A stretch of 64,000 nucleotides of DNA from an uncultured Desulfosarcina sp. (GTDB taxonomy: Bacteria; Desulfobacterota; Desulfobacteria; Desulfobacterales; Desulfosarcinaceae). Made by a program: the position numbers and the translations under genes. The notes below the pieces were generated by a model that saw only the letters and a list, made by a program, of their open reading frames with translations, was not told the DNA's origin and ran no database searches. Below, in pieces: positions 17,308 to 20,529 of this stretch. The stretch's first letter is position 1. Every line of letters starts with the position of its first letter. The stretch is from the NCBI GenBank assembly GCA_963674945.2, contig CAXXWQ010000002.1, forward strand, positions 64,001 to 128,000, given 5' to 3'.

Positions 17308-17508
17308 CTATACGGCTGTGACATTTTTGGCGGAAGGGCCCTTCGGTCCTTGCTCTACATCAAAGGTTACGCGGTCACCTTCGTTGAGGGATTTGAAGCC
17401 AGTTGAATTGATCGCTGAATGATGAACAAAGACATCTGTTCCATCTTCCTGCTCAATGAATCCGAATCCTTTGCGATCATTGAACCACTTAACTGTTCCA
17501 TTGGCCAT
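17308..17508 (-). CDS. csp: Cold-shock protein (CspA family)
   Basis: [33 protein letters not shown] (RNP1/RNP2), 66 aa, AAGGAGG RBS. Confidence 0.97.
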
Positions 17509-17512
17509 GATA

Positions 17513-17671
17513 GCATCCTCCTTTCTTATACTATTTTCAATGTCACTGACTGGAGGGTGCCATTTTTGCAAATGGTATTAACCTACAGAGAGGATCCGTC
17601 CTGAAGTGAAACAAATATAGACAGGACTTGATTGAATGTCTCAATAATAACCTGTTTTGCATATTAAGCAA
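17513..17671 (-). promoter_or_regulatory. csp promoter and structured 5' leader (copy 1)
   Basis: TTGCTT-N16-TATTAT (17671-17644); ~125-nt leader with GTCCTG/CAGGAC stem and CCCTCC complementary to the GGAGG RBS; homologous to 19248-19408. Confidence 0.65.
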
Positions 17672-17703
17672 GTTAAATATTTGATCGACGCAATATTAGC
17701 TGC

Positions 17704-18936
17704 CTATGCAAGTTTTCTCGCTGCCGATATTCTTCTATCATATCTTTTTCTTCCATTACAAAATTTCGATGCGGTTTTTTTATTTTCCTGCGAGCGACAA
17801 ACAAAATTGGATGATGCTCCACCGTAATTAATCGTTGGTAAAATTCTTTGCTCGATTTTAGAACCAATTGCTCGACGAATTGCATGAACTATTTTTTTAT
17901 CTTCATCGGTAATGAAAGTAAACGCTTCGCCGCTGCAAGTTGCGCGGCCTGTTCGTCCTATTCGGTGGATATATGCATCTGGTGTGGAAGGGATGTCATA
18001 ATTAATAACATGTGAAATCCTATTCACATCGATACCGCGTGCTGCGATATCGGTTGCTACCAAGATCTTGAATTTTCCGTCGCGAAAGCCATCAAGTGAA
18101 GCCTGTCTGCGCGACTGGGAGAGATTCCCCTGTAGTGCTGCCGATGCATATCCTGCAGTTGAAAGCTTTTTGCCTAAGTTTTTGGCACGATGTTTTGTTC
18201 TGGTAAAAACCAGGACCGATTTCGTATCTGTGTTTTCAAGCAGAGTTAGCAGTAGTGCTGTTTTTAAATGCTGAGCTACCGGGTAAAATGCATGGCTGAC
18301 GGTATCTGCAGGGGCGGTGGCACCAACCTGGACAATAGCGGGATCATTCAAAATGCTTCCAGTTAATCGTCGAATTTCGGGTGGCATGGTTGCTGAGAAG
18401 ACAAGAGTCTGACGTTTTTCGGGAACATGGTTGAGAATCTGCCGGATATCCGGAAAAAATCCCATATCCAGCATATGGTCGGCTTCATCCAAAACTAGTG
18501 TTTCCAGTTGGGAAAGATCGATGCTTTGGCGTCGAATATGATCGAGAAGACGACCAGGACAAGCAACAACAACATCTGCCCGTTTCACTTTTTGAATCTG
18601 CTGATGGATTCCTACGCCTCCGTAGATAGCAATGCTTCTAATACATGTCCGACTTCCAAGAACTTCAACTGTTTGATGTATTTGTTCAGCCAACTCGCGA
18701 GTCGGTGCGATAATCAGGGCTCGAATGGGTCCTTGGTTGCTCTTTACTAACCGGTGGAGAATCGGCAGAATGAACGCTGCAGTCTTGCCAGTGCCGGTTT
18801 GTGCCAGCCCCATCACATCACAGCCGTTTTGTATATACGGAATAACTCGTGCTTGAATAGGGGTCGGGTTTTCATAGCCTGCTGCGGCAATACCTGTGGA
18901 AATCAATGGATGAAAAGTAAAAGCTTTAAAGTTCAA
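17704..18936 (-). CDS. DEAD-box RNA helicase (RhlE-like)
   Basis: Q motif PTPIQ, AQTGTGKT, PTRELA, DEAD, SAT, ARGID, HRIGRTGR; TTG start. Confidence 0.96.
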   Translation of the reverse strand: MNFKAFTFHPLISTGIAAAGYENPTPIQARVIPYIQNGCDVMGLAQTGTGKTAAFILPILHRLVKSNQGPIRALIIAPTRELAEQIHQTVEVLGSRTCIRSIAIYGGVGIHQQIQKVKRADVVVACPGRLLDHIRRQSIDLSQLETLVLDEADHMLDMGFFPDIRQILNHVPEKRQTLVFSATMPPEIRRLTGSILNDPAIVQVGATAPADTVSHAFYPVAQHLKTALLLTLLENTDTKSVLVFTRTKHRAKNLGKKLSTAGYASAALQGNLSQSRRQASLDGFRDGKFKILVATDIAARGIDVNRISHVINYDIPSTPDAYIHRIGRTGRATCSGEAFTFITDEDKKIVHAIRRAIGSKIEQRILPTINYGGASSNFVCRSQENKKTASKFCNGRKRYDRRISAARKLA

Positions 18937-18960
18937 TAAGTACCTTCTTTCTGTGCTCCA

Positions 18961-18992
18961 AACAAAAAAGCCCCGGAGAAATTCCGGGGCTT
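18961..18992 (-). terminator. Intrinsic terminator in the helicase 5' leader
   Basis: Minus strand AAGCCCCGGA-ATTTC-TCCGGGGCTT, whose terminal TT starts a T6 run followed by GTTT. Confidence 0.8.
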
Positions 18993-19036
18993 ACGTGATT
19001 TTTAGTTACAACCAGGAACACTATTAGTTGCCGATG

Positions 19037-19065
19037 ACTATACAAGGAATAAAATTTGCTGTCAA
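19037..19065 (-). promoter_or_regulatory. Sigma70-type promoter for the DEAD-box helicase
   Basis: TTGACA-N17-TATAGT, near consensus. Confidence 0.75.
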
Positions 19066-19247
19066 GCGATTTCCATGTATCCATCCAATTGCATTTTTTT
19101 GTAAAATAAGGATTCCATATCAAAGCTATCTTGGATAGGCTATGGTGTGAGTATAGCGTTTTTTGAACAAAAACCTTACTGCATTTTACACTTCTTTGGA
19201 ACAACTGATTGAATTTGCATCATTAATAAGTATTTTAAGAATTTAAT

Positions 19248-19408
19248 TTGCTTTGTGGATGAAAATGGACTACTGTATGAATATTCAATTAAGTCCTGCC
19301 TCTATTCATTTAGCCCTCGGGACAGCTCCTTTCTGAAGGAAGACCTTCATTCGATAAAATGGCGCCCTCCAGTTTGCGACATTGAAAATTATTAAGAAAG
19401 GAGGATGC
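19248..19408 (+). promoter_or_regulatory. Orphan csp-type promoter and structured leader (copy 2)
   Basis: TTGCTT-N17-TACTGT, then a leader colinear with copy 1 up to AAGAAAGGAGGATGC, but no csp ORF follows. Confidence 0.7.
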
Positions 19409-19453
19409 CCTTTTCTTTTCCAACCGTAAAGAAATAACAGCTAAGGGGGTAAC

Positions 19454-19602
19454 TTGGCAAGATCAAACTATACATTTGCAAAACATCAAAAAGAAATAGA
19501 GAGAAGGAGAAAGAAGAGAAACGAAAACGCAAAATGGACAAGGGCAACACCACTGGGGAAGATATTACAGATACGGCTGACGATGATGGAGAGAGTACAT
19601 AA
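19454..19602 (+). pseudogene. Small basic protein, probably frameshifted
   Basis: RBS AAGGGGG plus TTG gives MARSNYTFAKHQKEIER; the adjacent frame from ~19504 continues KEKEEKRKRKMDKGNTTGEDITDTADDDGEST*. Confidence 0.5.
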
Positions 19603-19626
19603 AGTAACAACCTTGAGAGAGGCATT

Positions 19627-20018
19627 ATGCGTCAAAAATTCTTGATTTCTCGAAATTTAGAAAAAAAGAATTAAGGATAATGGAATATTCCGTTGTTGAC
19701 AAAGACTTGAAAAAAGTGTCATCGGATAGTTTGCGCGAGGATAATTTCTCATTAGTCGGCGAAAAAACATATAAAAGTGATGCTATCCTTGATTCCATAG
19801 CCCGAGGGGATACTGATTTGATTGGAACCCTTCGTACTCATAATATATTTCCTATTAGCACGTATGCTTCTAAAATAGCTAATAAGATCAGAGAACTATA
19901 CGCCCTGTCCAGAGACTTCACTGCAGAACTTTTTTTTGATGATTGTGATTTGATTTCTATCGAACAAGATGTTGATTGGCATCCAGAATTCTTGCCAGCA
20001 TGTTCAATCGATAGGTGA
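19627..20018 (+). pseudogene. Conserved hypothetical protein split by a 1-nt loss in an A7 run
   Basis: GAGAGG RBS plus ATG 19627 gives MRQKFLISRNLEKK; one more A at 19661-19667 joins it (ELRI) to ORF 19680..20018 MEYSVVDK. Confidence 0.55.
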
Positions 20019-20244
20019 AACGCACTTTAGGCCATAATGGTCGGCATCGCTTTTCAGTTTGTATCCTCTAATATCCACCTCAACCTTTGTTAATCCTTAA
20101 GAAAAGAATGTGTTCGTTATTCAAAAAAGGATATAACAAATATGGGAGATGCACCTGCCGCCATTGATGAAGCAGATGACTATCTGGGAAGACACAATAT
20201 GACGAAAAAATTGGAATTATTACAGATTAAAGGAATTTGAATTA

Positions 20245-20529
20245 ATGAATATATACATCGGAAATTTATCATTCAACACTACGGAAACCACTTTGAAGTT
20301 CTTATTCGACGAGTATGGCGATGTCGAAAGCGTTAAAGTCATAAAAGACCGCTTCTCCGGTCGATCCAAAGGATTCGGTTTCATCGAAATGCTAAGCAAT
20401 TCGGAGGCGGACAAGGCAATCAAAGCCTTGAACGGAAACCTAATTGATGGCAACAATATTAAAGTCAAGCCGGCGGATCCCGGCGGAAAGCGGCCTAAAA
20501 AACGATCCTTTCGTAGAAGAAATTATTGA
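20245..20529 (+). CDS. RRM RNA-binding protein
   Basis: NIYIGNL (RNP2), RSKGFGFIEM (RNP1), basic tail. Confidence 0.95.
   Translation: MNIYIGNLSFNTTETTLKFLFDEYGDVESVKVIKDRFSGRSKGFGFIEMLSNSEADKAIKALNGNLIDGNNIKVKPADPGGKRPKKRSFRRRNY

Follow-up and report, generated by a model that had tools for sequence, protein, structure and literature searches.

A Structured 5' Leader RNA Family of Cold-Shock mRNAs in the Desulfobacterales, Likely a Two-State Translational Switch

The leaders of cold-shock protein (csp) mRNAs are a textbook case of RNA cold sensing, although work on them has to our knowledge been confined almost entirely to enterobacteria and a few Firmicutes. Among RNA thermometers of the opposite sign, ROSE and fourU elements pair the Shine-Dalgarno (SD) sequence with an upstream complementary stretch and open by melting at high temperature. 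According to one account, the E. coli cspA, cspG, cspB and cspI leaders adopt at 37 C a fold that sequesters the ribosome binding site (RBS) along with the start codon and take up a shifted fold at 10 C (PMC13271884). In S. aureus, a U-rich motif within a hairpin of the cspA 5' untranslated region (UTR) is reported to be bound by CspA itself, with feedback (PMC5815144). The present analysis concerns a leader of this general kind in an uncultured Desulfosarcina sp. of the order Desulfobacterales, within a window of 64,000 nucleotides (assembly GCA_963674945.2, contig CAXXWQ010000002.1, positions 64,001 to 128,000) that holds two copies of it, one in front of a csp gene. With moderate confidence we regard it as belonging to a family of structured 5' leader RNAs of ~125 nt on Desulfobacterales csp mRNAs, likely acting as a two-state translational switch.

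The Desulfobacterales leader resembles those of E. coli cspA, cspG, cspB and cspI in being a long csp 5' UTR with alternative predicted folds, one of them sequestering the RBS, in having an AT-rich region upstream of the -35 box, and in being attached to only some of the csp paralogues of the genome (6/10 here). It differs from RF01766, the Rfam cspA family, in lacking sequence or structure homology to it, in its 5'-end closing helix, four hairpins and 16S-like CAYCCUCC anti-SD, and in its occurrence in the Desulfobacterales. As in the S. aureus cspA 5' UTR, a hairpin holds a conserved U- or pyrimidine-rich tract, and Csp might bind and melt it to exert negative feedback; in the Desulfobacterales leader this is the conserved GUUUCKUUCUG tract of helix P2, a putative Csp-binding motif. 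The leader is larger than its S. aureus counterpart, has a dedicated anti-SD and is not known to carry an RNase III site or to be processed. The pairing of the SD with an upstream complement is shared with ROSE and fourU; unlike theirs, however, this SD should by prediction remain paired at temperatures as high as 45 C, and the physiological response would be expected in the other direction, toward cold.

No Rfam 15 family reached its gathering threshold anywhere in the window, and none matches the leader whether the window, the region or each leader alone is scanned, which leaves the novelty proposed in the first-pass annotation intact. RF01766 scores 33.3 bits over leader, coding sequence and 3' end against a cut-off of 78, the aligned part being the coding sequence, so that membership in that family is rejected; a permissive scan of the leaders alone gave no RF01766 match at E values up to 10 and otherwise noise. 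The position in a CspA-family 5' UTR that marks RF01766 is found here as well, since 139 of 146 leaders end at a csp ATG and the csp product in the window matches PF00313. No description of a csp leader in the Desulfobacterota was found in the literature at full-text level, supplements being outside the scope of that search. The leader is a new RNA family, which would probably work like the known csp leader switches and is not a member of them. It offers an independent evolutionary solution for asking whether kinetic trapping with Csp feedback is a general principle, and with clean covariation, a multi-copy character and a presence in roughly three quarters of the Desulfobacterales genomes searched it could therefore enter Rfam as a new family.

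A leader family of the Desulfobacterales

Copy 1 is the 5' UTR of csp and lies on the minus strand at 17509..17637, ending at the ATG (17508) of a gene for a 66-residue cold-shock domain protein (17308..17508; PF00313, E 1.6e-30); copy 2 lies on the plus strand at 19283..19408. They match the covariance model with 149 and 144.8 bits respectively, and copy 1 is further defined by its RNAalifold structure and pair counts. The two had been put forward as colinear homologues, and alignment of 17637->17509 (minus) with 19283->19408 (plus) bears this out: aligned with their flanks they have a mean column identity of 82%, and BLAST joins them over 125 nt at 77% identity (E 7e-18). All of the shared motifs that had been listed are present in both, i.e. 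ATTCAATYAAGTCCTG, CAGGAC or CGGGAC, CCT/AGG, AAAATGGC(A/G)CCCTCCAGT, GACATTGAAAAT and TAAGAAAGGAGGATGC. The likeness of the two copies is far beyond chance, with eight copies in the genome and hundreds in its relatives. The reading of both as csp leaders holds in part, as copy 1 fronts csp and copy 2 has had its csp deleted (see below).

Two covariance models were used, R1 built from the six copies that BLAST finds in the 7.08-Mb source genome (G000), and the broader R2. R1 finds eight credible copies there (E 1.6e-30 to 2.4e-5) plus one weak overlap in antisense; six stand before csp genes and two before other genes, and two of the copies, 95% identical, lie inside a segmental duplication. 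The genome has ten csp genes by tblastn, and a leader of this family is not detectable at four of them (C4:2552642, C4:481240, C4:1483934 and C3:1576568). This division of the csp genes parallels that of E. coli into cold-induced and constitutive csp paralogues.

Beyond the source genome, R1 matches in 109 of 151 genomes of the order, representing 81 of 110 genera, and R2 in 114 of 151 genomes of a class-level sample in which all listed genomes come from the same order, whereas elsewhere in the phylum only 5 of about 146 genomes, from three families, have matches. The proposal that the element is specific to its lineage is accordingly sustained, with the Desulfobacterales as the lineage. Plain BLAST is enough to detect it in 18 of the 24 genomes from the same genus and in 6 of the 16 from other families, and a scan of named genomes with an exact pattern gives at least 113 loci, the matches listed including the isolate Desulfosarcina variabilis str. 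Montpellier, other Desulfosarcina, Desulfobacter, Desulfobacteraceae and Desulfobacterales metagenome-assembled genomes (MAGs), and the Olavius symbiont Delta 1. The leader model is also matched over its full length in a MAG labelled Nitrospinaceae (L187, 100 bits) and in one labelled Pseudomonadota (L172, 51 bits); with labels outside the Desulfobacterota, these could reflect mis-binning, an outdated label or horizontal transfer. A pattern match labelled Hydrogenispora (L177) comes without a covariance model match and is taken as chance.

The association with csp is close. Alignments A3 and A4 together hold 146 distinct leader sequences (A4, the model-aligned set of 103, was made without the fetched loci L167-L171), and in 139 of these the leader ends directly at a csp ATG. 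The remaining leaders comprise one whose csp is interrupted by a contig end, three that precede a gene of the 117-residue MRQK family (two of them in the source genome), one before an unrelated secreted-looking protein, one with ACG at the position of the ATG, and one that is cut off.

Conservation of the leader begins where transcription is predicted to begin. Both copies in the window are preceded, as had been reported, by TTTAAYTTGCTT, which holds the -35 hexamer TTGCTT at 17671-17666 (minus) and 19248-19253 (plus). The predicted sigma-70-type promoter of copy 1 (17644..17671, minus) joins this hexamer through a 16-nt spacer to a -10 box TATTAT at 17649-17644, and the predicted promoter of copy 2 (19248..19276, plus) joins it through a 17-nt spacer to a -10-like TACTGT at 19271-19276; nucleotide 1 of either leader lies 6 nt past the -10 hexamer. 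Across the 145 leaders with 60 nt of readable upstream sequence, 132 have a promoter-like site (TTGNNN, N16-18, TANNNT) ending 3-10 nt before nucleotide 1, most commonly at a distance of 6 nt (81 cases), so that leader conservation is placed at the predicted +1; the -60 to -39 region is 82% A+T. A scan with a stricter consensus left the csp promoters unlisted, their -35 box agreeing with TTGACA at only 3/6 positions, and the promoter assignment relies on the looser pattern just given.

Helices and the pairing of the Shine-Dalgarno sequence

RNAalifold applied to the six copies from the source genome gives five helices, P0 to P4. P0 pairs UUCAAU at nucleotides 2-7 with AUUGAA at 97-102, so that its 3' arm lies about 95 nt downstream of the 5' end; P1 pairs GUCCUG with CRGGAC, P2 UCCU with AGGA and P3 CCAUUU with AAAUGG, and P4 is small. 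In copy 1, where leader nucleotide n is window position 17638-n, these fall on the minus strand at 17636-17631 with 17541-17536 (P0), 17627-17622 with 17603-17598 (P1), 17593-17591 with 17584-17582 (P2), 17575-17570 with 17565-17560 (P3) and 17550-17548 with 17544-17542 (P4). In copy 2, where nucleotide n is 19282+n, they fall on the plus strand at 19284-19289 with 19381-19386 (P0), 19293-19298 with 19318-19323 (P1), 19327-19331 with 19336-19340 (P2), 19347-19351 with 19358-19362 (P3) and 19372-19374 with 19378-19380 (P4).

On the 103 sequences of A4, an alignment that was fitted to the model structure and leans towards it, 86.9% of the cells of the structure are paired, a share that drops to 29-50% if the partners are shifted by 1-3 columns. 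Changes on both sides of a pair occur at 6/6 pairs of P1 (92.5% of cells paired), 5/5 of P3 (90.6%), 6/6 of P0 (79.7%), 2/4 of P2 (82.0%) and 2/3 of P4 (89.9%). The P1 pair 12:65, for example, is GC in 39 sequences, UA in 33 and CG in 9, and the P0 pair 4:155 is CG in 89, UA in 5 and UG in 5, the strength of P0 being in its core. Because A4 was fitted to the structure, two independent checks were made: a rerun of RNAalifold on A4, which returns only P1 and P3, with compensatory changes at all 11 pairs, and a structure-free MAFFT alignment of the 146 distinct leaders, in which 75.1% of cells are paired in P0, 91.5% in P1, 82.7% in P2, 82.0% in P3 and 91.1% in P4. P1 and P3 are solid, since both checks recover them; P0, P2 and P4 are plausible but weaker. 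Compensatory helix changes across genera are thus a property of the Desulfobacterales csp leader family as captured by R1 and R2. The earlier assertion that pairing is kept despite divergence is borne out at every pair of P1 and P3, and the second hairpin that it described, with CCT and AGG as its arms, is present as P2 in the weaker form just given.

Directly after P3 stands a conserved CAYCCUCC that is complementary to GGAGGAUG, i.e. the SD and the next three bases; in copy 1 this anti-SD is CACCCUCC at 17559-17552 and the SD, GGAGG, is at 17521-17517 (minus), and in copy 2 they are CGCCCUCC at 19363-19370 and 19400-19404 (plus). The complementarity extends from the 3' arm of P3 (AARUGG) into the spacer before the start codon to give a 12-position helix, P5, in which 81.1% of cells are paired on A4 (33-66% with slid partners) and 82.5% on the MAFFT alignment. 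The pairing of CCCTCC with the SD that had been suggested from the two copies is therefore upheld across the family, and it is reflected in folding energies as well (below). Three extension pairs of P5 in the MAFFT alignment are 78:125 (GU 73, GC 29, AU 16, UA 13), 77:126 (GU 71, GC 42, AU 21) and 75:128 (GU 46, GC 43, AU 26). Nucleotides 75, 77 and 78 belong to the covarying 3' arm of P3 and vary in step with their partners in both P3 and P5, and complementarity to two partners is therefore retained. A further pairing, of the P2 pyrimidine tract UUUCUUUCU with AGAAAGGAG, has 82.6% of its cells paired; as a second anti-SD it is rejected, with both-side changes at no pair and slid controls at 54-78%, and it is kept as a possible alternative pairing only.

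The AUG within GGAGGAUG (window 17516-17506, and many homologues in A3 and A4) is conserved and out of the csp frame. In many homologues it opens a mini-frame of three codons (MLS or MLL) whose UGA stop overlaps the csp start as AUGA; this AUG is taken here as part of helix P5 and not as a coding frame.

Two folds, temperature and competing explanations

Nearest-neighbour energies, extrapolated to low temperature and unable to represent pseudoknots, predict that the SD is buried. For 102 of the 103 sequences (one with an N was dropped), the median predicted probability that the SD is free stays below 1e-4 throughout the range from 0 to 45 C. The cost of opening the SD at 37 C has a median of 6.5 kcal/mol, compared with 3.6 when the upstream part of these RNAs is shuffled, and it exceeds a leader's own shuffled control in 90 of 98 leaders (five of the 103 were dropped for want of an aligned ATG or SD motif, or for an N). 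Sequestration of the SD is on these predictions a conserved property of the leader, because of that excess over the controls. The leader is not a simple melting thermometer, since the SD is predicted to stay buried throughout and takes more energy to open in the cold (9.6 kcal/mol at 5 C); an SD-sequestering thermometer of the ROSE or fourU type is rejected on these values, and an equilibrium cold-ON thermometer on the higher cost in the cold. For a response that is ON in the cold, either kinetic trapping or a protein would be required. The first-pass annotation had pictured a thermosensor-like leader that sequesters the RBS, and of this the structured, lineage-restricted leader and the pairing of SD with anti-SD stand, while equilibrium folding shows no melting thermometer.

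What the folding model does suggest is a succession of two mutually exclusive folds, with the SD buried in the stable one. Median pair probabilities were compared for 90 of the 103 sequences, 13 being dropped for gaps at scored columns. In the nascent leader, which extends to the 3' arm of P0 and has not yet made the P5 core, P0 forms with a probability of 0.51-0.81 and P3 with 0.93-0.98 at 0-37 C; in the full leader, extending to the AUG, P0 falls to about 0 and P3 to 0.04-0.10 at 0-45 C, with the P5 core at 0.76-0.92. During transcription, then, P0 to P4 would form and leave the SD free. As soon as the SD and spacer have been made, that fold is predicted to give way to the more stable P5, formed by the 3' arm of P3 plus CAYCCUCC on one side and GGAGGAUG plus the spacer, as far as the start codon, on the other; P3 and P0 would thereby be displaced and the SD buried. 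A heuristic method applied to every third row of A4 (35 sequences) puts the median barrier for refolding from the first to the second fold at an estimated 5.1 kcal/mol for 37 C, 6.8 for 25 C and 9.8 for 10 C, and by an Arrhenius estimate from these barriers refolding would be hundreds to thousands of times slower in the cold. Closure would then be much delayed at low temperature, and new csp mRNA would therefore be translatable for longer after a temperature drop. Accumulating Csp chaperones may speed closure and so give negative feedback, by analogy with E. coli cspA and cspG and with S. aureus cspA.

A number of observations weigh against this two-state switch. At equilibrium the SD is predicted to remain buried over the whole range of 0 to 45 C and to be costlier to open at 5 C than at 37 C, so cold induction would depend wholly on the proposed kinetic trap; the fold with P0 to P4 lies a median of 21 kcal/mol above the predicted minimum-energy fold; and P5 core pairing as a pseudoknot, which is outside the folding model, could leave P0 intact. 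The outer pairs of P0 are poor, 2:102 being paired in 33 of 138 sequences of the MAFFT alignment. Alignments fitted to a covariance model lean to its structure, and kinship among the sequences inflates the shuffle statistics. Ribosome binding alone already constrains the SD side of P5. Of the 103 leaders, 35 have a degenerate CCUCC:GGAGG core (at most 3/5 pairs), and no significant correlation links a degenerate core to the stronger P5 extension that would compensate for it (Spearman -0.14, p 0.16). The genomic context, with a DEAD-box helicase and an RRM protein nearby, was counted in its favor.

Several other explanations take up parts of the same evidence. The leader might be mainly a protein-binding platform for autoregulation, in which Csp binds the P2 pyrimidine tract and loop (GUUUCKUUCUGAAGG) and remodels the leader, temperature acting through Csp levels only. 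The P2 loop is highly conserved without a need for pairing (TCTG in 119 of 146 leaders, TTCTGAAGG in 54 of 146), and its near-invariant KUUCUGAAGG resembles a GXUCUG motif that is shared by crosslinking and immunoprecipitation (CLIP) peaks of E. coli CspC and CspE (PMC9426608), a likeness treated here as a lead only; the binding of S. aureus CspA to its own hairpin points the same way. Csp proteins, however, bind many U-rich sites with low specificity, and such a platform leaves unexplained both the anti-SD and the competition between P3 and P5; it is in any case compatible with the two-state switch rather than exclusive of it, and as the main function of the leader we think it unlikely. Less likely again is a leader that serves mainly mRNA stability, with P0 shielding the 5' end from 5'-end-dependent RNases and, being weak and AU-rich, forming better in the cold. 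E. coli cspA mRNA is stabilised in the cold, P0 here pairs nucleotides 2-7, its core pairs from 3:101 to 6:98 persist in 110-137 of 136-144 sequences, U-A in some cases replacing C-G, and its predicted probability in the nascent leader climbs from 0.44 to 0.81 between 45 C and 0 C; but the full-leader model loses P0 to P5, and the anti-SD would again have no explanation.

The architecture, a junction of five helices whose joining strands are conserved, with a helix that sequesters the SD, has the outward form of a metabolite or ion riboswitch in which the junction would be the aptamer and the anti-SD/SD helix the expression platform. Nearly all of the leaders are followed by csp (139 of 146) and none by metabolic genes, which suggests that there is no ligand, and the leader has no match to an Rfam riboswitch, so that we consider this very improbable. 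The element could finally be no functional RNA at all, with the two 95% identical copies in a segmental duplication of the source genome reflecting recent duplication only, or the sequence acting as a site at the DNA level such as a repressor operator. Against this stand the spread of the family over at least 81 genera, the compensatory changes in P1 and P3, and a conservation that is strand-specific and runs from the predicted +1 to the start codon; we give it the least credence of all.

A bolder form of the two-state switch would have a kinetic-trap family of RNA thermosensors govern a cold-shock regulon of the Desulfobacterales, the leader driving an operon in which the Lys/Arg-rich and MRQK proteins described below are cold-shock effectors. 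This extension is tentative, and we hold it to be doubtful. If the kinetic-trap reading is true, the leader would be a thermosensor of the dominant marine sulfate reducers and the two small proteins new cold-shock effectors; the leader also marks a probable cold-shock regulon, with two uncharacterised proteins among its members, in sulfate reducers that live in cold marine sediments.

The csp-less copy, its operon and neighbouring genes

Copy 2 is closely related to the leader of a paralogous csp elsewhere in the genome (G000 C4:839405, minus strand, L041), with 90% identity up to GGAGGATGC. Past this point the alignment skips 249 bp of the paralogous locus and resumes at GGATGCCCTTTT, which is the 3' arm and U-tract of the terminator of the paralogous csp. 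The junction shares a 6-nt repeat, GGATGC, that occurs once in the SD region and once in the 3' arm of the csp terminator, and that lies at 19403-19408 (plus) in copy 2. The csp of copy 2 has been deleted, because the alignment jumps across this repeat to the terminator arm; copy 2 is, on this comparison of loci, a derivative without its csp and not a second working csp leader. The deletion made a remnant frame of ten codons, MPFSFPTVKK (19405..19437, plus), out of the former terminator 3' arm and U-tract, and remnant frame and U-tract are now fused to the SD of copy 2 (window 19403-19437). Upstream, about 110 bp at 19155-19264 have no counterpart in the paralogous locus and contribute the TTTAATTTGCTT -35 box of copy 2, so that an older promoter remnant, TTGGATAGGCTATGGTGTGAGTAT (about 19131-19154), is followed by a newer promoter.

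In other Desulfobacterales (L298, L300, L302, L304) the operon runs in the order leader, csp, a Lys/Arg-rich protein of ~50 residues (MARSNYQFNKRQKELARKKKKEEKRQRK...; MARSNYQFNKRQKE...) and the 117-residue MRQK protein. The leader lies upstream on the same strand at 12 of the best 30 MRQK loci, and the MRQK family, present in 124 of 151 genomes of the order, gave no Pfam match and no usable ESM Atlas hit. Both proteins are candidate new cold-shock-linked proteins. In the window, the homologue of the Lys/Arg-rich protein is a small open reading frame (MARSNYTFAKHQKE...; 19454..19645, plus) whose frame is broken in a purine run near 19500 (about 19495-19510), and the MRQK gene, third in the csp operon (19627..20018, plus), has a 1-nt indel in an A-run (about 19655-19670) that splits MRQKFLISRNLEKK from the MEYSVVDKDL... 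frame (19680-20018). With its broken frames the operon in the window may be a decaying paralogous operon, or the breaks may be homopolymer errors of a long-read assembly.

The two leader copies lie in a cluster at 17308-20529 that holds csp, a DEAD-box helicase, the csp-less leader operon and a gene for an RRM-domain RNA-binding protein (20245-20529); in the segmental duplicate at C4:837-843 kb of the same genome a helicase is flanked by two csp leaders. The helicase gene (18936-17704, minus) has a TTG start and a strong sigma-70-like promoter, TTGACA N17 TATAGT at 19065-19037 (minus), with 11/12 matches. Between them, at 18992-18968 (minus), about 30 nt before the TTG, lies a hairpin with a U-run like that of an intrinsic terminator, also kept in the paralogous locus; it is a candidate transcription attenuator and possibly a target of Csp antitermination.

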